Numbered from the stretch's first letter, positions 1 through 11,511 are shown. The stretch: 64,000 bases of DNA from an uncultured Clostridium sp. (GCA_947427095.1 CANEGO010000005.1:15021-79020); one strand, 5' to 3'. Program-made: numbers and translations. Notes: a model not told the origin generated them from the letters alone.

Positions 1-350
1 TTAAAACCTCATCTATTGTTCTACTTCCTGCTAAATCGGTCATAAATAATGCTTTAAATATATTTGGCTCTTTATATGCAAATAATGCATACGCATAACT
101 AATAGTAAATAAATAGTCTTTTTTATCCACAAACTTATAAATAAACGCATCATAGTAGTCATGAAGATATTTTTTTAATTTTCCTTTTAGCCCATCCATA
201 CTTCCAAAATTTTTAAATAATGGTTGTGTTGAACATCCAATGTATTTGCATAGTTCCCTAGCATTAAGTAATTGAATACCTTTATTTTTTATAAAGTCTG
301 CTGATTTTTCTAAAATTACTTTTTCATCAAAAACAGTCCTTCTTGCCATA
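1..350 (-). CDS. TetR/AcrR family transcriptional regulator (partial; N-terminal ~116 aa in window, C-terminus beyond window edge)
   Basis: Minus-strand ATG at 350 gives MARRTVFDEKVILEKSADFIKNKGIQLLNARELCKYIGCSTQPLFKNFGS..., a typical TetR N-terminal HTH. The frame stays open to position 1. Confidence 0.6.
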
Positions 351-371
351 AAATCATCCTTTCCAAATATT

Positions 372-389
372 AAATAACAGTTGTTATTT
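372..389. promoter_or_regulatory. Near-perfect palindrome AAATAACAG/TTGTTATTT 22 nt upstream of the TetR start; candidate TetR operator
   Basis: 8-bp perfect inverted arms read directly in the sequence. TetR operators are typically palindromes overlapping the regulator's own promoter. Confidence 0.4.
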
Positions 390-901
390 AATTATAAGTG
401 TTTATATAAGAAATGTCAATACAAAAAAGAAAACTATGTCGAAACATGGTTTTCTTATACATTTGTTGGTAGTAATCATTTATTATTCGCTCCACCCGTA
501 AGCGAATATATCTGTTTTTCTATCAATAATATACATTAGTTTTAAATGGAAATCAGGAGTTTAAAGAAAACATTGAAAATGTAAAAAAGAAAAGTCTGTC
601 TAATTTTCATTATTTATTACAATCATAGCAACACATTGCTCAGTAAATACCCTAATTGAATACCTTCTTTCTCCGTGAGAACTTGAGGTCGAGATTTTCG
701 ACTTCAAAATTTCTAAATCGTAATTATCTAATAACCGACTAAATCTTTTAGGAAATTTTTCTGAATTATTCTTTACGGCCTCATTAATTTTTTACTAAAC
801 CTCTTTCAGCTACCAAATGATACTTTCGCACAAAAAGTTGATTATTTAGCATAAGCTTATATGGTTTAAATTATTCAATGATTTTCTATTTTTTAATAAG
901 T

Positions 902-1267
902 TTATTTTTTTCTTCTTGTTTGAATAGCAAAATATGTTTGAGCAAGAGCAATAACCGACTTTCTACTATCCCCATTTTGAGCAATTAAGTAGCAAGCATA
1001 TCTAGATAGCTTATAATCTTTCTGTTTTCTATATGCTCGCGAACCAATTGCTACCATTTTACTAGCATCAATAAAATGGTAGGTAGCATTAAAATCACTA
1101 TTTTCACAGGCTGTAATTGACTTATTAATTATTTTTTCAAAATTTTGCCAATTTGAATATTGTAATATAGGCATTAACTCTCTTGCTAACCAATACTCAT
1201 TACCATACTCATCAATATGTTTAATACTATGAAATACCATATCATTATGTAATTCTAACTTACTCAT
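902..1267 (-). CDS. DinD-like (DNA-damage-inducible protein D / Bro-N-like) protein; track ORF extends to 1351
   Basis: C-terminal motif LSRYACYLIAQNGDSRKSVIALAQTYFAIQTRRKK and YWLARELMPILQY resemble the E. coli DinD N-terminal region as recalled from memory. Start placed at the internal ATG (1267) because GGAGA lies 8 nt upstream; the 1351 start has no usable SD. Confidence 0.5.
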   Translation of the reverse strand: MSKLELHNDMVFHSIKHIDEYGNEYWLARELMPILQYSNWQNFEKIINKSITACENSDFNATYHFIDASKMVAIGSRAYRKQKDYKLSRYACYLIAQNGDSRKSVIALAQTYFAIQTRRKK

Positions 1268-1573
1268 TTTTAATATCTCCATCCTTATTAGTTTTATATT
1301 AAATTCATAAATTGTGTTTTTTGTTTCATTTGACAACAAATATCTCGGCATCTAACATAATTTGTTTCTCCATTATTTAACATATTAAATTTTCTTTTTT
1401 TCTTCTATTTCATACATAGTATCACTTATTTGATAAAGATTATTGTTTTGTTATAAATATTTATTAAATGAAAAAACCTAATTTACATAAAGTAAAATTA
1501 GGTTTTGAATGACCTAGAGCTTCTAAAGTTTTCTAAGCACCACTCATTTATATTATACTTTTAATTTGTTATT

Positions 1574-2455
1574 TTATACATTAGGATAACCCATTATTCT
1601 TAATATATCATTTATATTTATAGATTCTAATTTACTACTCAGCTTTTTTATTTCATTATTTATAGAATTAATTAATTCATTATACATCTCATAATTTAAA
1701 ATTAATTTTAGTGTTCTTAATATCATATATAGATTTGTTGAATTACCACTTACTAAATAATTTTTATCAATCACTTTAAAACCTAGTGTATATTTATCCC
1801 TAAAACAGAAAAGCCTATCTGAATGAGCTGCTATATTGCGAATACTTGTTAAATTTTTTAATATCTGTTTCAGTAATTTATCAGATATTTTAAAATATTT
1901 AGCAATCATTTGTCTATCATTTTGTTTTAATAATCCATAATAACTACTTGCAACACCAAAAGTTAAAATTTTCATTAATACAAATGGTGGTACATATCCA
2001 TATTTATCTTTATAGTGCGTTATTGCTGAATGAACTTTATAATTATGATCTATTTCATCATTGATTCTATTAATTAAATTTTCTTTTATTTTTATATTAA
2101 CCTTACTATCCAAATTATTTATATTTAAATAATCTTGTAAACCATATACTTTAGAAATTTGGTTAGCCATTAAAGACTTAATTATTGTTTCTATTTCTAA
2201 AGCATATTTTAAAATTATATATTTTAAATTTTTATCAAAATCATATAAAGCATATATTTCATCAAAAGTAACATTAGGTAGATAATTACCATTTCTATCT
2301 TTAAAATTATATTTATAGCTATTTACTATGGAATAATAAGTATATTTTTCAATTTTGTTAATTGCATCTTGTTTATCTTTAACAATTACATTTTTAGATA
2401 CCAAATATTCAATTAATTGTTCATTACTCTTATATTCTTTCATTAAATCCCCCAA
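1574..2455 (-). CDS. Abi_2 family (AbiD/AbiF-like) abortive-infection protein
   Basis: 293-aa ORF with Abi_2-like features (FG..L hydrophobic core, RNIAAHSDRLF motif). GGGGGA SD lies 4 nt before the ATG. Family call rests on remembered motif patterns. Confidence 0.55.
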   Translation of the reverse strand: MGDLMKEYKSNEQLIEYLVSKNVIVKDKQDAINKIEKYTYYSIVNSYKYNFKDRNGNYLPNVTFDEIYALYDFDKNLKYIILKYALEIETIIKSLMANQISKVYGLQDYLNINNLDSKVNIKIKENLINRINDEIDHNYKVHSAITHYKDKYGYVPPFVLMKILTFGVASSYYGLLKQNDRQMIAKYFKISDKLLKQILKNLTSIRNIAAHSDRLFCFRDKYTLGFKVIDKNYLVSGNSTNLYMILRTLKLILNYEMYNELINSINNEIKKLSSKLESININDILRIMGYPNV

Positions 2456-2464
2456 TAGATAAAA

Positions 2465-2503
2465 AATGACCAGGGGCTTCTAAAGTTTCCCTGGCACTAC
2501 TCA
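2465..2503 (-). terminator. Hairpin GCCAGGG-loop-CCCUGG followed by U7 on the minus strand; terminator of the gatCAB operon and/or attenuator in the abi leader
   Basis: Minus strand reads GCCAGGGAAACUUUAGAAGCCCCUGGUCAUUUUUU. It lies downstream of the gatB stop and downstream of a TTGACA-17-TATATT promoter (2510-2538). Confidence 0.6.
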
Positions 2504-2567
2504 ATATGTAATATATCAATTTTTTATATTACTGTCAATAATTTATAATCTAAAATTTCAAAATCTG

Positions 2568-3992
2568 CTATTTATTATAATTAGCAAGTTCTTCTCTTAG
2601 CATTTCCATCGTTTTAGCTGGATTTGCTTTACCACGAGTCTTTTTCATAACCTGTCCAACAAAGAAATCTATCATTCTTGTTTTTTCAGGATTATATTCT
2701 CTTGCTTGTTCATCATTTTCTTTTAATACTTCCATAACAACATCATGAATAGCAGCGTCATCAGTTATTTGCATCATACCTTTTTCCTTAACGATAACGT
2801 TAGGTTCTTTACCTGATTCTATCATATCTTCAAATACTTCTTTAGCTTGTTTTGAGGATATTGTTTTGCTATCAACTAAATCAATTAACGCTTTTATCAT
2901 AGCTGGCTTAACAGGTACATCTTCTATTTTCATTTCATTAGTGTTTAAGTATCCCATAAGCATACCAGTAACCCAGTTACAAGCTTTTTTAGGATCAGCA
3001 CCTAACTCAACACATTCGTTAAAGAAGTCTGAGTTTTCTTTAACTTTAACTAATACTTCTGCATCATACTTAGAAAGTTCATATTCATCCATGTACTTTC
3101 TTACTCTATCTAATTGAAGCATAGGAATTGTTTTTCTAATTTCTTCTAACATTTCGTCAGTTACATCAGTTGGTGCAATGTTTGGTTCGATAAAGTATTT
3201 ATAATCAACTGCATCAGCTTTATCTCTCATCTTGAAAGTCTCTCCAGTTTCATCATCAAAACGTCTTGTTTCTTGTTCTACTTTACCACCATTTTGAAGA
3301 ATTTCAGTTTGTCTTTCAATTTCATAATCAATTGCACGACCAACGTTATAAAATGAGTTAATGTTTTTCATTTCAACTTTAGTACCTAACTTCTCAGAGT
3401 CTGAAATTGATACGTTAACGTCACATCTCATTTGACCTCTATCACTTCTAGCTTCTGATACACCACAGTAAACGATTAATGAACGATATGTCTCTAAGAA
3501 AGTTAAAGCTTCTTCTTTAGAATGTAAACAAGGCTCTGTTACTGTTTCTAAAAGTGGAACACATGCTCTGTTATAATCTATTAAAGAATATGTATCATAG
3601 TGATCAAGGGACGCTGTATCTTCTTCTAAGTGAGTATCATGAATATCTACTCTTTTAATCTCACCATCCACATCAATATCTACATAACCATTTATACCAA
3701 CTGGTTTAGTCATTTGTGTTATTTGGTATCCCTTTGGTAAATCTGGATAGTAATAGTTTTTTCTATCAAAGATTATTTCATCAGGAGTTGTACAATTCAT
3801 TGCCATAGATACCTTTAAAGCTCTTTTAACAGCTTCTTCATTTGCTACTGGTAAGATACCTGGAAAACCTAAATCTTGGTATGCTACGTGTGAGTTTGGC
3901 GCTTCTGTATATCCATTTATAGCAGGAGAAAATACTTTTGAGTTTGATTCTAATTCACAGTGAACTTCTAGTCCAATTGTTACTTTATACAT
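2568..3992 (-). CDS. gatB: Asp-tRNA(Asn)/Glu-tRNA(Gln) amidotransferase subunit B
   Basis: 474-aa ORF beginning MYKVTIGLEVHCEL, with a GatB-like C-terminal domain. Confidence 0.95.
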   Translation of the reverse strand: MYKVTIGLEVHCELESNSKVFSPAINGYTEAPNSHVAYQDLGFPGILPVANEEAVKRALKVSMAMNCTTPDEIIFDRKNYYYPDLPKGYQITQMTKPVGINGYVDIDVDGEIKRVDIHDTHLEEDTASLDHYDTYSLIDYNRACVPLLETVTEPCLHSKEEALTFLETYRSLIVYCGVSEARSDRGQMRCDVNVSISDSEKLGTKVEMKNINSFYNVGRAIDYEIERQTEILQNGGKVEQETRRFDDETGETFKMRDKADAVDYKYFIEPNIAPTDVTDEMLEEIRKTIPMLQLDRVRKYMDEYELSKYDAEVLVKVKENSDFFNECVELGADPKKACNWVTGMLMGYLNTNEMKIEDVPVKPAMIKALIDLVDSKTISSKQAKEVFEDMIESGKEPNVIVKEKGMMQITDDAAIHDVVMEVLKENDEQAREYNPEKTRMIDFFVGQVMKKTRGKANPAKTMEMLREELANYNK

Positions 3993-3993
3993 A

Positions 3994-5433
3994 TTACTTT
4001 TCCTCCCTTACGTTAAGTGGTACAAAACCAATTTTTTCTTCTAATGCTGCAGCCATGTTAATAACTGTGCTATCGGTTTTTATTGGACCGGATATGTTAA
4101 TTGCAACTGGCATACCTTCTACCATTCCAGATGGAATTGAAATTGAAGGAAAACCACCAAAGTTAGAAATTACCATGTTTTCTGCAAATAGCAAATAGTT
4201 ATCTGACATAACGTCACTAGTTTCTCCAAAATGTGGAGCGATAGTGTTAGTATTTGGCATAATGCATCCATCGTATTTTTCAAATAACTCATTCATTTTA
4301 TCAACGATTAATCTTCTAATTCTCCCGGCGTTCTTAAATAGCTTTTCTTGGTTTTCTTTTTGAAGAATAAATGACCCTAAAACAAATCTTCTTCTAATCA
4401 ATTCTGAGAAACCTTCGGTTCTAGTATTAATCATAACCTCAGCCGGAGTAGACCCACCTTTTCTATTTCCAAAAGGAATACCAGTAAGGTTCGAGTTATT
4501 ACTAGTTGCTTCAGCACAAGAAATTGCCATATAAGAAGGATATAAACTTCTTAAAATATTTTCATCTATACTTTCTTCTACAACTTCCATACCACATTCT
4601 TTAGCATATTCTATAATTTTCATAAAGTTATCATAAAACTCTGGAGTATTTTTTAACTCATCGTTTAACTCTTTAATGTAGAATAATTTCTTTCCTTTAA
4701 CGTCAGTAGTATAACTATCTACTAAGTTAATGTTAGATGAATCTATTGATGTCATATCTCTTTCATCTATTCCTTTAATTGCATCAATTACGTATGCAAC
4801 ATCTTTTACTTTTCTTGTAAAACATCCTACGTGGTCCATACTAGATGCAAAGGCAAATAATCCCCATCTAGATACTAAACCGTACGTTGGTTTATATCCT
4901 ACAACACCACAGTATCCAGCAGGTTTACGAATAGAGTCCCCTGTATCAGTACCTAGTGCGTAAGGTACGATTCCTTTTGCTACTGCTGCGGCAGATCCAG
5001 CAGAAGATCCAGCTGTTTGTCTTGTAATATCCCATGGGTTTCTTACAACACCAGTATGACCAGTAGTTCCTGTTCCACCCATTCCAAGTTCATCCATAAC
5101 GGTTTTACCCATCATAACAGCACCAGATTCTTTTAACTTTTCAATACAAGTTGCATCAAATACTGGAACATAATCAGCTAAAATGTTTGATGATGCGGTA
5201 GTTAAAACTCCCTTAGTTGATAAGTTATCTTTAATAGCACATGGAATACCAGATAATACGTTATCAGTTATTTCTTCTTCCTTAGCATCATCTAAGATAG
5301 TTACGAAGCTATTTAGCTCTTCTTGCGAAGCGTGAGCTCTTTCTAACGCTTCTTTAGTCAATTCTCTACTAGTTACCTTACCTTCTTTTAAGGCTGCATG
5401 TATTTCTTCTAAACTTTTATCTAAATAACTCAT
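3994..5433 (-). CDS. gatA: Asp-tRNA(Asn)/Glu-tRNA(Gln) amidotransferase subunit A (amidase family)
   Basis: 479-aa amidase-signature protein (GGSSGGSAAAVA, Ser-cisSer-Lys context) immediately between gatC and gatB. Confidence 0.95.
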   Translation of the reverse strand: MSYLDKSLEEIHAALKEGKVTSRELTKEALERAHASQEELNSFVTILDDAKEEEITDNVLSGIPCAIKDNLSTKGVLTTASSNILADYVPVFDATCIEKLKESGAVMMGKTVMDELGMGGTGTTGHTGVVRNPWDITRQTAGSSAGSAAAVAKGIVPYALGTDTGDSIRKPAGYCGVVGYKPTYGLVSRWGLFAFASSMDHVGCFTRKVKDVAYVIDAIKGIDERDMTSIDSSNINLVDSYTTDVKGKKLFYIKELNDELKNTPEFYDNFMKIIEYAKECGMEVVEESIDENILRSLYPSYMAISCAEATSNNSNLTGIPFGNRKGGSTPAEVMINTRTEGFSELIRRRFVLGSFILQKENQEKLFKNAGRIRRLIVDKMNELFEKYDGCIMPNTNTIAPHFGETSDVMSDNYLLFAENMVISNFGGFPSISIPSGMVEGMPVAINISGPIKTDSTVINMAAALEEKIGFVPLNVREEK

Positions 5434-5738
5434 TATTCTTCACCTCCAACTACTTTTGGAACTTTAACTTCATCATAGATTGTTTCATGTGCGTTTTTAA
5501 CTGCATCTTCAGTAGTTAAAGTACTTGTGGCTTCATCTTTTCTTAATTTAGCATCCTTATTTCTAAATGGAAAAGTCATAGGTTCTACCTTTTCTATTCC
5601 TTCTATTTTTCCAATTAAGTCCATTTGTTTTATTATTGTTTCAAACTCTTTTTCAAAAGTATCAAACTCTTCATCTTTCATCTTAAACATTAATTTTAAT
5701 GCATAATCTTGAATGTTTTCTCTTGTTATTTTTTGCAT
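5433..5738 (-). CDS. gatC: Asp-tRNA(Asn)/Glu-tRNA(Gln) amidotransferase subunit C
   Basis: 101-aa ORF overlapping the gatA start by 1 nt, in the canonical gatCAB order. Confidence 0.85.
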   Translation of the reverse strand: MQKITRENIQDYALKLMFKMKDEEFDTFEKEFETIIKQMDLIGKIEGIEKVEPMTFPFRNKDAKLRKDEATSTLTTEDAVKNAHETIYDEVKVPKVVGGEE

Positions 5739-5753
5739 CCTTTATCCTCCTTT

Positions 5754-6449
5754 TTAATTACTTTGATTTCTTTCTATAATTATATCACTAACCGTTAAAT
5801 TTATATTATTAAATACGTTACTAATAATAACTTCTGCAACATCATCTGGATTCATAAACGTATGTTGCTTTTCTAATGAAACATAATCCCTACTATTTTT
5901 ATAGAAGTTAGTATTTATTCCACCTGGATATACGCCTATTACTTTTACGCTGGTTCCTTTATAGGCTACTTTTAAGCTTTCTGTATAACCTTTTTCTCCC
6001 CATTTAGTTGCACAATAAACACTTTCACCTTTATTTCCTCTTAAGGCAGCAGAACTCATTACATTAGCTATTCTTATATTTTCTTCTTTTATTTTAAGTA
6101 AATTACCAGTAAGCATAATCATTCCATATAGACCTTTAAAACAAGTATCTATATCTTTTTTTACATAGTCCTTAGGTAATTTAAATGATGGTTCTCCGGC
6201 ATTATTAATAAGGCCAATTATATTCCCTTTTTTATTTATATCATTTACAGTATTAATAATAAATTCTTCATCTGATATATCACCATTATAAACATAAACT
6301 TTATCTATATAAGTATTTTTTAATTCATTCGAGGCCTCTTTATCTTGATCAATTACACATACATAATAACCTTGATTAATTAGCTTCTTAGTTAATGATA
6401 AACCTAATCCGTTAGCTCCACCACTAACTATTACTATATCTTTGTTCAT
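5754..6449 (-). CDS. SDR family NAD(P)-dependent oxidoreductase
   Basis: N-terminal VSGGANGLG glycine motif and catalytic Y-x3-K (YCATK). Confidence 0.8.
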   Translation of the reverse strand: MNKDIVIVSGGANGLGLSLTKKLINQGYYVCVIDQDKEASNELKNTYIDKVYVYNGDISDEEFIINTVNDINKKGNIIGLINNAGEPSFKLPKDYVKKDIDTCFKGLYGMIMLTGNLLKIKEENIRIANVMSSAALRGNKGESVYCATKWGEKGYTESLKVAYKGTSVKVIGVYPGGINTNFYKNSRDYVSLEKQHTFMNPDDVAEVIISNVFNNINLTVSDIIIERNQSN

Positions 6450-6451
6450 AG

Positions 6452-7285
6452 CTATACCTCTATTTCTTCCATGTCATCTGGAACAATTACGTTTCCATTA
6501 AAATATTTTTTCCCTTCAGCCTCATATAATTTTTTTCTATCATTACCATGATTTTCCTGCGTATGAAATAGAATTAAATTTTTTACGTTTAAATTATTCA
6601 TAATATCACAAGCATGTTTTACTGTTGAATGCTGTTTTTCATAAGCATGAAATATGTTTTCTTCTGATTCTAAGCACATTGCCTCATGCATAACATAATC
6701 AGAATCTTTTACAATATTATTTAATTCTGGATTCAAAGTAACATCTCCTAAAAAAGTTAACGTTTTATTATTTATTACACACTTAAACCCATACAATTTT
6801 ACCGATTTATTCCTAACATCAAAAAAAGTATATTTAATTCCATTTATTTCAACAACTTCATTGTTTTCTAAAATGTGAAAATTAACATTATCATGTATTA
6901 AATTTACTAATTTTTTCGGTAATACTTGATTTGATACCTCATTTATTGCAGTGTATACAACATCATTACAATATACATTAATATCTTTTTTTATTTCATC
7001 GTGCATTGCCATTACACCAATTTTTTTAAACATCCATATAAGACCTAAAATATGATCAGTATGAGCATGAGAAATAAATATATGATTTATATCACTTAGT
7101 GATATATTAAGGTTATTCAACCTTTTTCTTATTTCAATACTACCACCGGTATCAACTAAAAAATTACCACTATCATTTTTTATAAGAAAGCATGTATTAT
7201 ATAAGTCCATAGTACCACCAGCACCAGTACCCAACATAATAATTTTATTCATAATTTTCTCCTGTAGTTTCCTATTATTCACCAA
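6452..7285 (-). CDS. MBL-fold metallo-hydrolase
   Basis: HAHTDH metallo-beta-lactamase motif; tightly linked to its neighbours. Confidence 0.75.
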   Translation of the reverse strand: MVNNRKLQEKIMNKIIMLGTGAGGTMDLYNTCFLIKNDSGNFLVDTGGSIEIRKRLNNLNISLSDINHIFISHAHTDHILGLIWMFKKIGVMAMHDEIKKDINVYCNDVVYTAINEVSNQVLPKKLVNLIHDNVNFHILENNEVVEINGIKYTFFDVRNKSVKLYGFKCVINNKTLTFLGDVTLNPELNNIVKDSDYVMHEAMCLESEENIFHAYEKQHSTVKHACDIMNNLNVKNLILFHTQENHGNDRKKLYEAEGKKYFNGNVIVPDDMEEIEV

Positions 7286-7850
7286 TATATCCTAAAATTT
7301 CGTCAAACTGCTTTGAATATTCTTCATAATATTTTTCTAAATCCTCTTTGGCCTTTGGTAAAGATAATATATTATATTTTTCGTTTAATTTATATTTTAA
7401 TTGTGTTACTTGCTCTTTAAAGTCACTAGTTCTTTTAGCTAAAACACCAGCATATGTAAATACACCAACTGGATGAATAAATCTATAACAATCAGCATTA
7501 GCACATACTTCTGCTTCCGTACATGTAAAAGGTATTTTACCATGGTGGGCTTCTATACAATTTATTAACTTATCTTTCTCTTCTTTAGTTAAATCATATT
7601 CTTCAAGGAATTCTTTAGCAAAATCTGAAGCCATTTTAACGTGTTCTGAAGCTTTATTTAACTTGTGAGCTTCTCCTAGTTTTATATCCATCAAACAAAC
7701 TCCTATTGTTACAAAATCTTCATCAACATTATACTCTTTTGCTAACATCCTTCCTTTTACTAACGAAATATCAAGATGATTCTTTACTGGTGGCGTATTT
7801 TCACTTGCCATTTTTAATACATCTTCTAATAATTGTTCTTTATTTTTCAT
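7275..7850 (-). CDS. HD-domain phosphohydrolase-like protein
   Basis: H...HD-type motifs (EAHHGK). AGGAGG SD upstream of the start. Confidence 0.65.
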   Translation of the reverse strand: MKNKEQLLEDVLKMASENTPPVKNHLDISLVKGRMLAKEYNVDEDFVTIGVCLMDIKLGEAHKLNKASEHVKMASDFAKEFLEEYDLTKEEKDKLINCIEAHHGKIPFTCTEAEVCANADCYRFIHPVGVFTYAGVLAKRTSDFKEQVTQLKYKLNEKYNILSLPKAKEDLEKYYEEYSKQFDEILGYIGE

Positions 7851-7890
7851 ATAGTCCTCCTATTTATAAAAAACATAATTTACAATATCA

Positions 7891-8307
7891 CTATATTTTT
7901 TCTACTCTTATTGGTTGTGATCCTTCAGAACATAGTTTAGCAGCTTCAATAGCAAATTCTGATAAGCCTTCTGTTATCATTCCTATTGCAGCACCGTTTT
8001 GAAAACCAGTTGGACCAAAACACCATCCTCTATCGTACCATAAGTCAAAACCTACATCATTTCCTCCTAAAGGCATAATAATTATTTCACCAATTGATGG
8101 TAAGCAAGTTTCATTTTCATGTTCGTATTTAGGAAAATTTGAAAGTTTTGTCCATATTTCGCTTCCGGCCCATTTTGCATGCAATGCATCTTGTTCAAAT
8201 GGTAATACCTTAAGTAAGCTATCAATTACAGTTGGACATTTATCATCACGTAATTCAGCAACAACGCTTACTCCACTCTTAACTAATGTTATTTTTATTT
8301 TTGTCAT
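7891..8307 (-). CDS. Hypothetical protein, possibly DUF3830/cyclophilin-like (start moved to the internal ATG with a GAAGGAGA SD)
   Basis: The track ORF 7891..8367 has a better start at MTKIKITL: GAAGGAGA lies 8 nt upstream. Family assignment is from memory only. Confidence 0.45.
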   Translation of the reverse strand: MTKIKITLVKSGVSVVAELRDDKCPTVIDSLLKVLPFEQDALHAKWAGSEIWTKLSNFPKYEHENETCLPSIGEIIIMPLGGNDVGFDLWYDRGWCFGPTGFQNGAAIGMITEGLSEFAIEAAKLCSEGSQPIRVEKI

Positions 8308-9768: not shown

Positions 9769-11511
9769 TTATCTTAACTTAATATGAGTTTCTCTTAGTT
9801 GTAATTCAGTAACTTCATTTGGAGTACCAGTAAGTACGTCTTCACCATTTTGGTTTAATGGGAATGCAACTGTTTCTCTTACGTTATCTTCTTCTAATAA
9901 CATCATAAGTGATCTATCAATACCAAGTGCCATTCCTACGTGTGGTGGACATCCATATTGGAATGCTGTGTATAAAGCACTGAATTTCTTCTTTATATCT
10001 TCTTCTGTGTATCCAGCAAGTTCAAAAGCTTTAACTAATACTTCTGGTCTGTTATTTCTAACAGCTCCTGATACAAGTTCTACACCATTACATACAACGT
10101 CAAATTGGTCTGCATATATTTCTAGTGGATCTTCGGTTTCTAATGCTTTTTCTCCACCTCTTGGCATACTAAATGGGTTATGCATAAAGTCTAATTTACC
10201 AGTTGTTTCACTTATTTCATACATTGGCATATCAGTTATGAAACAAAATTCAAATCTAGAGTTATCAATGATATCTAACTTTCTTCCTAATTCATCTCTT
10301 ATTAAACCGGCGTTTTTACATACAACTGCTTCTCTTTTATCAGCGATAAAGAATAATACGCTGCCTACTTTTAAGTCTGCTTTTTCAAATAATGCATTTC
10401 TATCTTCTTCTGTTAAGAACTTATCAATTGGTCCTTTTAAAGACTTATCTTCTTGAACAGTTATATAACCAATACCAGGCATGTCAATTGATTTAGCATA
10501 ATCAACTAATTCATTAAACCAGCTGTTTGGTTTAGATGCGATTGTCTCTACCTTTATTGCTCTTACGATTGAATCTCTAAATGGTCTAAATTCAGTTTCT
10601 TTAAATACTTCTGATACATCAATTATTTCAAGTGGATTTGTTAAGTCTGGTTTATCAGTACCATATTTAAGCATTGATTCCCTATAAGGTATTCTTCTAA
10701 AGTGTCCTTCAGTTACACTTCTTTTACCAAACTCTTTAAAGAATGCAGGAAATACTGTTTCAGCTACTTCCATAATATCTTCTTGGTCTGCGAAAGCCAT
10801 TTCCATATCTAATTGATAGAATTCTCCAACTAATCTATCTCTTCTTCCATCTTCATCTCTAAAACATGGCGCAAGTTGGAAATATTTATCAAATCCTGAA
10901 GCCATTAACAATTGTTTAAATTGTTGTGGTGCTTGTGGAAGTGCGTAAAACTTTCCTTTATGCTTTCTCGATGGAATTATAAAGTCTCTAGCACCTTCTG
11001 GTGATGATGATGTAAGAATTGGTGTTGTAACTTCTAAGAAGCCTAATTCTTGCATCTTATTTCTTAAGAAGTTAAATGCTTTTGATCTTAAGATTATGTT
11101 TTCATGTACCTTTGGATTTCTTAAGTCTAAGAATCTGTATTTTAATCTAACATCTTCTGCTACCTTTTTAGATTCATCTACTTCAAATGGTAATACTTTA
11201 GCCGTATCAGATAGTAATTCTAGTGAGTCTGCTACTACTTCTATTTCTCCTGTAGTAAGTTTTTTATTAACTGTTTCCTCATCTCTTTTAATTACTTTAC
11301 CAGTTATTTTAATAACTGTTTCTTTACTTACTCCTTTTAGCATAGCATCATCATGTACAACAACTTGTGTTACTCCATAATGATCTCTTAAGTCAACGAA
11401 CATAACTCCACCATGGTCTCTTACGCCCTGTACAAAACCTGATAAAGTAACGTCCTTATCTAAATCTTTTATTGTTAATTCTCCGCATGTATTTGTTCTA
11501 TATTTACTCAT
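9769..11511 (-). CDS. aspS: Aspartate--tRNA ligase (probably non-discriminating, given co-located gatCAB and an Asn T-box)
   Basis: 580-aa class II aaRS with an N-terminal OB fold and the FRDED, QLDMEM and GGLAMGIDR-type motifs. Confidence 0.95.
   Translation of the reverse strand: MSKYRTNTCGELTIKDLDKDVTLSGFVQGVRDHGGVMFVDLRDHYGVTQVVVHDDAMLKGVSKETVIKITGKVIKRDEETVNKKLTTGEIEVVADSLELLSDTAKVLPFEVDESKKVAEDVRLKYRFLDLRNPKVHENIILRSKAFNFLRNKMQELGFLEVTTPILTSSSPEGARDFIIPSRKHKGKFYALPQAPQQFKQLLMASGFDKYFQLAPCFRDEDGRRDRLVGEFYQLDMEMAFADQEDIMEVAETVFPAFFKEFGKRSVTEGHFRRIPYRESMLKYGTDKPDLTNPLEIIDVSEVFKETEFRPFRDSIVRAIKVETIASKPNSWFNELVDYAKSIDMPGIGYITVQEDKSLKGPIDKFLTEEDRNALFEKADLKVGSVLFFIADKREAVVCKNAGLIRDELGRKLDIIDNSRFEFCFITDMPMYEISETTGKLDFMHNPFSMPRGGEKALETEDPLEIYADQFDVVCNGVELVSGAVRNNRPEVLVKAFELAGYTEEDIKKKFSALYTAFQYGCPPHVGMALGIDRSLMMLLEEDNVRETVAFPLNQNGEDVLTGTPNEVTELQLRETHIKLR

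Follow-up and report, generated by a model that had tools for sequence, protein, structure and literature searches.

Abortive-infection (Abi) toxins of the AbiF type are the closest described relatives of the system discussed here and, in what the available accounts say of PbAbiF and of the C. difficile AbiF proteins, they are neutralised by direct binding of a non-coding RNA (ncRNA) encoded upstream of the toxin gene (PMC12373285, PMC12737573, PMC13064643). For PbAbiF-AbiFr, a type III toxin-antitoxin (TA) pair from Prevotellaceae, a homodimer is described as binding two RNAs (Zilberzwige-Tal et al. 2025, as related in PMC12737573, PMC12373285 and PMC13064643). In C. difficile, a terminator between RNA and gene makes the short RNA predominant, the stem matters by its structure and not by its sequence, and the ncRNA also works in cis by premature termination (PMC12373285); the lactococcal relative AbiD1 is under translational control through its messenger RNA (mRNA) (PMC13064643), and the HEPN effector Cas13 is seen as evolutionarily derived from AbiF (PMC12373285, PMC12737573). 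Here we compare with these systems an Abi_2 locus in a stretch of 64,000 nucleotides (nt) from an uncultured Clostridium sp. (GCA_947427095.1, CANEGO010000005.1:15021-79020; the window in what follows), the gene of which is flanked by two copies of a short RNA hairpin, A on its 5' and B on its 3' side. Comparative analysis makes us fairly confident that in these hairpins the Abi_2 protein has its cognate RNA partner, within an AbiF-type TA system, and by analogy the hairpin is most likely the RNA antitoxin of that system.

Every gene in window 1-6450 lies on the minus strand, to which all module coordinates refer and which reads from high to low numbers. The module spans about 1.1 kb (2538-1465) and is ordered promoter, hairpin A with U-tract, ribosome-binding site, abi, -10 box, hairpin B, terminator. 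That an Abi_2 abortive-infection gene occupies an accessory region immediately 3' of gatB had been proposed in a preliminary description of this DNA, and the assignment holds: the 293-residue open reading frame (ORF; 2455-1574) falls inside Abi_2 (PF07751, E=5e-41, 141.5 bits against a cutoff of 25.6) and is also hit by the PADLOC AbiD model (1.2e-49). Its real start is most likely the ATG at 2443, 5 nt after a GGGGGA ribosome-binding site (GGGGG at 2449-2453), which gives an abiF/abiD-like gene of 289 codons (1574-2443); the orthologues also begin MKEYK and carry a GGAGG or GGGGG ribosome-binding site in the same place. Over residues 2-276, i.e. nearly its full length, the protein is homologous to PbAbiF (PDB 8VZ6_A, E=1.5e-13), and the motif of the HEPN ribonuclease (RNase) toxin family is intact (R202-N-I-A-A-H207), with R202, N203, A206 and H207 invariant in 11 orthologues and R202/H207 of AbiFCd as its equivalent (PMC12373285). 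Relatives number more than 1400. Protein searches of phage genomes and IMG/VR returned distant ones only (31% identity or less and 28-34%, respectively), so this Abi subfamily is not evidently phage-borne.

The bracketing of the gene by two copies of an element of about 39 nt, noted earlier from the sequence, is borne out. The copies at 1508-1546 and 2465-2503 lie 957 nt apart and agree at 31 of 39 positions (79%), and the exact 13-mer GCTTCTAAAGTTT which they share occurs nowhere else in the 64 kb. R1, a covariance model built from homologous hairpin elements, recovers exactly these two sites from the window, hairpin A at 2462-2506 (63.4 bits, E=2e-15) and hairpin B at 1505-1549 (66.4 bits, E=3e-16), the next best match scoring 11 bits. 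On the minus strand both copies adopt the same fold, in which the internal loop and apex (AAACUUUNGAAGC) are invariant and the 7-bp stem differs by compensatory changes. Hairpin A, the 5' leader copy, folds as GCCAGGG-AAA-CUU-UAG-AAG-C-CCCUGGU, with its stem P2 formed by Watson-Crick pairing of GCCAGGG (2495-2489) with CCCUGGU (2475-2469) around the core AAACUUUAGAAGC (2488-2476); behind the 7-bp stem come UCA and a U6 tract (2466-2461), followed by UCAUUUUUU, the GGGGG element and the start codon. Hairpin B begins 25 nt past the abi stop codon and pairs GCUUAGA (1538-1532) with UCUAGGU (1518-1512), including two G-U pairs, around the same core AAACUUUAGAAGC (1531-1519), after which CAUUCAA follows and no U-tract. 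Hence it is the copy at 2465-2503 which has the clean stem and U6 and the one at 1508-1546 which is compensated, the reverse of how the two had been described. Behind hairpin B stands an intrinsic terminator (1465-1506), a perfect 12-bp stem of AAAACCUAAUUU (1506-1495) with AAAUUAGGUUUU (1484-1473) followed by UUCAUUU. This hairpin (about 1473-1506) had been correctly picked out and assigned to a DinD-like gene; since, on the strand common to both, it comes after the Abi_2 gene and before the DinD ORF, it would serve the abi transcript rather than DinD. Folded one at a time, the sequences show nothing remarkable in their energies (z = -1.7 to -2.1); the case for significance is made by conservation and covariation across species and not by thermodynamics. 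A search of the region against Rfam at permissive thresholds found nothing relevant; a SAM-II match inside gatB (22.9 bits, E=0.6) was discarded as chance.

Loci for comparison came from exact or near copies in other assemblies, from 80 GTDB genomes with one locus per species (56-81% protein identity, all of them metagenome-assembled genomes of uncultured gut Bacilli, Clostridia or 'Tenericutes') and from two metagenomic contexts. Complete were 81 loci, namely 79 GTDB species representatives, the two metagenomic loci and the window (56-100% protein identity), and in 80 of them the hairpin pair flanks the orthologous abi gene, in unrelated contexts and without exception on the strand of the gene, with A about 45 nt before the start and B about 45 nt after the stop codon. 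The sole complete locus without copy B is L023, in which the sequence after the stop (2368-2560) is unrelated. In L005 (77% identity), the module has a response regulator on one side and a PNPOx gene on the other, and in L006 (68%) it comes after two transfer RNA (tRNA) genes and before an HD-domain gene, each time with both hairpins at the same positions; in none of the 80 other species does it adjoin gatB. Recurrence of the same pair in unrelated contexts indicates that the repeats belong to the abi module and not to a gatB target. As a side observation, L050 (124-2516) and L075 (1357-2676) contain tandem duplicates of the complete hairpin-abi-hairpin module, and L075 (2509-2545) has an extra truncated hairpin (40 bits) without the 5' flank.

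Ungapped alignment of 95 distinct 45-nt hairpin copies from about 80 species reveals how this RNA is constrained. P2 (columns 12-18/32-38) is paired in 100% of its cells, with compensatory double changes at six of its seven pairs, at one of these in a single sequence. The proposed structure as a whole is 96.4% paired, compared with 22-52% once the 3' partners are slid by 1-3 columns, and none of 500 shuffles reached the observed level of covariation; RNAalifold independently predicts P2 along with an invariant 3-bp inner helix, P3. Little or no variation is seen in the apex with its internal loop (AAA-CUU-UNG-AAG-C) or in the flanks GAGUGGU and UCAUU, and to judge from the alignment the loop and core look as expected of a protein-recognition surface. 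G-U pairs are common (pair 12-38, for example, is G-U in 46 of 95 copies), which means that the helix works only on the transcribed gene strand, that is, as RNA. The A copies alone use at least five different fully paired stems; the stem of the B copies is nearly fixed (CUUAGA/UCUAAG). Of the rare substitutions that A carries outside P2, 20 of 29 are common to the B of the same locus, which compares with 4.9 +/- 1.8 after shuffling and was matched by none of 2000 shuffles. As the P2 stems of A and B remain distinct despite these shared substitutions, the pattern points less to wholesale gene conversion than to a binding partner common to both, and would fit two RNAs co-adapting to one partner. 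The outer helix P1 (columns 5-9/39-43; in hairpin A 2502-2498 with 2468-2464) has some compensatory support (G-U to U-A in L087 and L090), and we keep it tentatively.

How does this RNA relate to those already described? With PbAbiF the window shares an Abi_2/HEPN protein, the Rx4H motif and a short hairpin RNA directly upstream on the same strand. In contrast to the one 5' and one 3' hairpin found here, PbAbiF has a single hairpin, which the Rfam family RF03085 finds directly upstream of the gene (58.5 bits; no downstream copy), and the asymmetry of the internal loop is reversed (5' AAA / 3' C in the window, 5' A / 3' CAAAUC in the PbAbiF RNA). Transcription of the opposite strand would mimic the RF03085 asymmetry and was rejected in view of the G-U pairs, promoters, U-tracts and fixed orientation. 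C. difficile AbiFCd-RCd22, from the phi027/phiC2 prophage, resembles our locus in its Abi_2 toxin (about 29% identity), its RNxxAH motif and its two hairpin motifs per locus; there, a SigA-type promoter drives the RNA and a terminator sits between the RNA and the toxin ORF (PMC12373285). Unlike in the window, both of its motifs stand in tandem within one upstream RNA of about 100 nt and of RF03085 type (37.6 bits upstream of phage phiC2 abiF), and the system is housed in a prophage lysis module, whereas ours is chromosomal, 3' of gatCAB, and has its hairpins split across the ORF. RF03085 and the window RNA are both sense-strand hairpins of about 37-45 nt next to abiF/Abi_2 and share a plan in which an outer stem of 6-7 bp leads through an asymmetric internal loop to an inner stem of 3 bp, yet their conserved nucleotides differ and only the latter has the additional conserved 5' GAGUGGU and 3' UCAUU. 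R1, for its part, found no match at the PbAbiF and phiC2 reference loci, nor at Abi_2 loci of RF03085 type and of streptococcal and enterococcal phages. ToxIN, CptIN and TenpIN likewise pair an RNase toxin with a repetitive RNA antitoxin encoded in cis, and in them a terminator determines the RNA:toxin ratio. Their toxins have an unrelated fold (ToxN/AbiQ), and their antitoxins are tandem upstream arrays of 2-5.5 pseudoknotted repeats; a ToxIN-like type III TA was excluded for the window by its two dispersed copies 957 nt apart and its Abi_2/HEPN toxin. With Cas13 of type VI CRISPR systems the locus has in common a HEPN effector that binds, or here would bind, a short repeat hairpin, as in the direct repeats of CRISPR RNAs (crRNAs), and repeats that flank an intervening sequence. 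It differs from Cas13 in that there is neither an array nor variable spacers, the effector gene itself lies between the repeats and no sign of a guide function is seen. On the strength of protein and gene-RNA association we would file the locus as an AbiF type III TA, with an RNA outside RF03085 and a 5'+3' arrangement.

Signals for expression are conserved together with the hairpins. Upstream of hairpin A, the predicted promoter P_A (2510-2538; -35 TTGACA at 2538-2533, 17-nt spacer, TG-extended -10 TATATT at 2515-2510) matches the consensus at 11 of 12 positions plus the TG and would place the transcription start at about columns 4-6 of the hairpin. A TTGAnn -35 and a TG-extended -10 precede copy A in 77 orthologous loci, from which we infer that P_A works as a promoter. 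In the orthologues, A copies are practically always followed by a U-run, and B copies by CAA and a separate CCUAG...CUAGG terminator with a U-tract. At exactly the offset which separates the -10 of P_A from hairpin A, hairpin B is preceded in the window by a TATAAT hexamer (1552-1557) and in the orthologues by TATAAT (58 of 77 loci) or TAAAAT (12 of 77; together 70 of 77), in the midst of poorly conserved intergenic columns; a TG extension is missing there, and the -35 is weak. We consider it a candidate internal promoter, P_B, or else a conserved RNA processing site, and are less sure of the promoter role than of the RNA-protein partnership itself. The same reduced confidence applies to hairpin A as an attenuator or terminator-like element.

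Taken together, window 2538-1465 may be pictured as a self-contained AbiF/AbiD-type module made of a HEPN RNase toxin and two cognate structured RNAs. Copy A, transcribed from P_A, would form the first 45 nt or so of the transcript, and its GC-rich stem with U6 would act as a leaky terminator or attenuator, so that mostly small hairpin RNA is made and toxin mRNA arises by read-through only. Copy B, in the 3' untranslated region (UTR) and probably with its own -10 promoter, would yield a second hairpin RNA ending at the 12-bp terminator. By analogy with PbAbiF/AbiFr and AbiF/RCd22, each protomer of an AbiF homodimer would bind one hairpin, thereby occluding the HEPN site as in a type III TA, and two hairpin genes per locus would match a 2:2 stoichiometry. 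Upon phage infection, the labile RNA would be lost, and the RNase thus released would bring growth to a halt. No terminator belonging to gatB lies in the interval from its stop codon to P_A (2539-2567); read-through from gatCAB would enter hairpin A with its U6 tract, and in this genome such read-through is probably stopped by that hairpin as well.

Hairpins of this class also occur apart from abi. Scanning metagenomes and IMG/VR by motif yielded 150 hairpins in which P2 is paired. Of these, 99 lie beside an Abi_2 homologue, 56 of them in position A and 43 in position B, and 27 are solo, with at least 1.1 kb on each side and no Abi_2 (R1 46-72 bits). The solo copies, on metagenome contigs within L111-L230, have their own promoter and a terminator or U-tract and stand next to unrelated genes (sigma-70 factors, GerM, FTCD_C, NYN); examples are L217 5032-5076(-), L205 6336-6380(-), L160 5624-5668(+) and L126 3604-3648(-). 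In some, a promoter of A type goes together with a stem and terminator of B type, as would be expected after deletion of abi by recombination between the repeats. Recombination between the copies, which had been raised in the preliminary description, thus gains indirect support as an evolutionary process. Two solo hairpins are on viral contigs: one (69 bits) in L106 at 2652-2696(-), on the 99.6-kb IMGVR_UViG_3300045988_165086 just 3' of endolysin/amidase and tail-fibre-like genes, the other (60 bits) in L105 at 11427-11471(-), on the 105-kb IMGVR_UViG_3300045988_173931, which has a portal gene. Pseudo-ToxI is the analogue invoked for phage-encoded antitoxin hairpins, and phage-encoded antitoxin mimics are said to be known for ToxIN (reportedly from Blower et al. 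2012). By that analogy, solo and viral hairpins may be orphan antitoxins or phage-encoded antitoxin mimics acting against AbiF, and we offer them as leads only.

If the hairpins are not antitoxins that act in trans, they could be cis-regulatory only and serve in attenuation, translational control, 3' protection or autoregulation. Their places fit such a role, copy A being in the leader with its U-tract directly before the ribosome-binding site and copy B in the 3' UTR, and so do the premature termination and translational control cited above for C. difficile (PMC12373285) and for lactococcal AbiD1 (PMC13064643). However, solo hairpins with their own promoter and terminator and with no abi gene downstream fit an RNA working in trans, as does the conserved -10 box before copy B, and we regard a purely cis-regulatory role as rather unlikely. 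Smaller still is the chance we give to generic end structures, i.e. Rho-independent terminators or mRNA-stabilising hairpins with no specific protein partner, even though copy A presents a hairpin and U6 where a gatB terminator is expected, the folding z-scores are modest, and 5'-terminal and 3' stem-loops are classic mRNA stabilisers in Firmicutes. Terminators preserve stems and U-tracts, whereas here a 13-nt loop and apex stays near-invariant in 95 copies and the stem covaries; moreover, copy B has no U-tract and a separate terminator behind it, abi-less relatives have unrelated terminators after gatB, and A and B share lineage-specific substitutions.

The remaining two rivals take the repeats as marks of mobility. 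According to one, to which the preliminary description leaned, the abi cassette had inserted into the gatB terminator and duplicated its target; repeats do bracket the gene, the region after gatB is an insertion hotspot (see below) and in one relative, L101, another inserted gene has a 216-nt duplicate of the gatB 3' end behind it, which shows that insertion with duplication happens at this site. Yet this reading is already contradicted: the same repeat accompanies abi in 80 loci with unrelated neighbours and lies inside the module's own conserved promoter and terminator, the stems differ by compensatory and not by random changes, and the corresponding empty sites of four relatives (L101-L104) have no hairpin, the one R1 match there (20 bits, in L102) being doubtful. 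The other holds that the repeats are DNA-level recombination sites, akin to attC or cassette ends, which mobilise abi. In its favour, the module occurs in many contexts with no obvious mobility gene and is bracketed by hairpin-forming repeats, and solo copies resemble products of A x B recombination; but the conserved neighbourhood is without recombinase or integrase, conservation reaches past the repeats into promoter and terminator, orientation relative to the gene is fixed, and the G-U pairs confine the structure to one strand, always the transcribed one. To our minds, both scenarios are highly improbable.

Several points nonetheless weigh against the antitoxin interpretation and temper it. 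Even at E<=10, RF03085 matches neither the window nor L005 or L006, and with the RNA outside RF03085 its relation to the validated antitoxins is one of analogy only. P1 is the weak part of the structure: at two of its pairs, A-C or C-A stands in 18-21 of the 95 sequences, and the helix is missing from the RNAalifold prediction. A consensus terminator scan does not call hairpin A, so that its attenuator role is inferred only, and the TATAAT before B, lacking a good -35, could instead be an RNA-level signal. Solo hairpins without an Abi gene are common (27 of 150), so the RNA may act without the toxin. More generally, what we propose about function at this locus derives from sequence comparison. 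As to novelty, the RNA class and the 5'+3' arrangement are undescribed in the literature consulted and may already be catalogued by Zilberzwige-Tal et al. 2025 (Cell).

Turning to the surroundings, the module follows gatC (5738-5433), gatA (5433-3994) and gatB (2568-3992; GatB_N and GatB_Yqey domains in Pfam), all on the minus strand. In the four relatives L101-L104 (GatB 88-97% identical), nucleotide homology to the window runs out exactly at the gatB stop codon in three of them and no more than about 20 nt from it in the fourth, and what follows differs: an unknown 471-residue gene and a KilA-N gene (PADLOC PDC-S22) and then alr in L101, unknown genes in L102 and L104, and a Bro-N/DinD-like gene directly after gatB in L103. 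The duplicate of the gatB 3' end in L101 (7543-7758) lies behind the 471-residue gene, and L102 and L103 have a canonical, unrelated terminator right after gatB. Scanning with R1 revealed no convincing hairpin after gatB in L101-L104. Since the cargo differs among relatives, the region after gatCAB qualifies as a hypervariable hotspot of which the hairpins are not the scars. Comparison of related genomes, as suggested earlier, bears out the variability after gatB. Against L103, no recognisable intergenic homology was seen that would define an insertion junction.

Some further observations concern these contexts. The break in homology falls at window 2563-2569, opposite position 5925 or so in each of L101-L104. 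In L102, the weak R1 match (6070-6114, 20.2 bits, E=0.004) has a core-like AAAACUUUAAAGGC and no convincing stem, and may be a decayed remnant or chance. L006 has its two tRNA genes (3493-3656) about 300 nt upstream of the abi module, and the window has no tRNA within 8 kb; a tRNA scan of window 1-8000 found none, hence no tRNA-linked integration here. Upstream of abi in L005 (3490-3900) there are several units of about 100 nt, each with a promoter-like segment, a structured segment and a T-run (e.g. 'gaagaagcgataatctcattctgttacatttgtaactggaacgtcgcctctttatttttt'), which could be a family of small RNAs or leaders and for which Rfam returned nothing.

Downstream of the module and outside it lies a gene taken to be DinD/Bro-N-like. 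The similarity is real (PF02498, 3.6e-11), albeit that of a truncated N-terminal fragment (902-1267, minus strand; 121 of about 275 residues): against the DinD profile NF008573 the ORF reaches 177.6 bits where 242 is the cutoff and aligns with positions 8-121 out of the 288 in the profile, whereas the intact dinD of L001, a contig of the same species, encodes 275 residues and scores 327 bits against the same cutoff. L001 is 97.8% identical to the window over 5756-904 only, from gatC into the dinD fragment, and the flanks differ on both sides; its homology ends at window 904, and this breakpoint truncates dinD after codon 121. This breakpoint reflects either real rearrangement or mosaicism, or a chimeric assembly. 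A defence link between Abi and a neighbouring DNA-damage-inducible gene had been suggested. AbiF is RecA-dependent in Lactococcus (PMC13064643), and DinD-like and KilA-N neighbours match the PADLOC candidate defence families PDC-S13 and PDC-S22; adjacency of Abi and DinD is, however, found in only one of 80 other species, and we rejected a functional link between the two. The possible TetR-like regulator (2-349, minus strand; N-terminal part), also outside the module and cut by the window edge, does not live up to its former designation as a TetR regulator, with 14.7 bits for TetR_N against a cutoff of 24 (E=0.028) and no NCBIfam match, and its side of the window is not syntenic with the abi block in L001. 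About 40 nt before its start at 349 stands a sigma-70 promoter with a 12/12 consensus match (TTGACA-17-TATAAT at 419-391, minus strand), and at 90% identity window 550-423 matches the stretch that comes immediately behind gatB in L104.

A bolder view would have one AbiF dimer bind the 5' and 3' hairpins of the same mRNA, or excise them in the way Cas13 processes pre-crRNA. We think this unlikely. Were it true, the dimer would clamp or process its own message and so couple toxin synthesis to antitoxin supply, and the repeat-payload-repeat unit would represent a plausible step from single-hairpin AbiF to type VI CRISPR arrays. Solo hairpins would then be trans-acting antitoxins, and those carried by phages would serve as decoys against AbiF, comparable to pseudo-ToxI.

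The characterisation of AbiF toxin/RNA-antitoxin systems dates only from 2025; Cas13 is considered to descend from them, and the literature consulted knows a single RNA class (RF03085), always upstream of the gene. To this our analysis adds a second, well supported class, seen in over 150 instances and marked by a stem that covaries and a putative recognition loop that is invariant; its split 5'/3' arrangement is conserved in about 80 species of uncultured gut Bacillota. Currently invisible to Rfam and PADLOC, this RNA can be annotated with the R1 covariance model. For annotation at large, the locus teaches that direct repeats flanking a gene are easily misread as insertion scars. Solo and phage-borne hairpins provide a lead on RNA-based anti-defence and on toxin loss via repeat recombination, and the locus lends itself naturally to the study of how differing RNAs are recognised by HEPN toxins.

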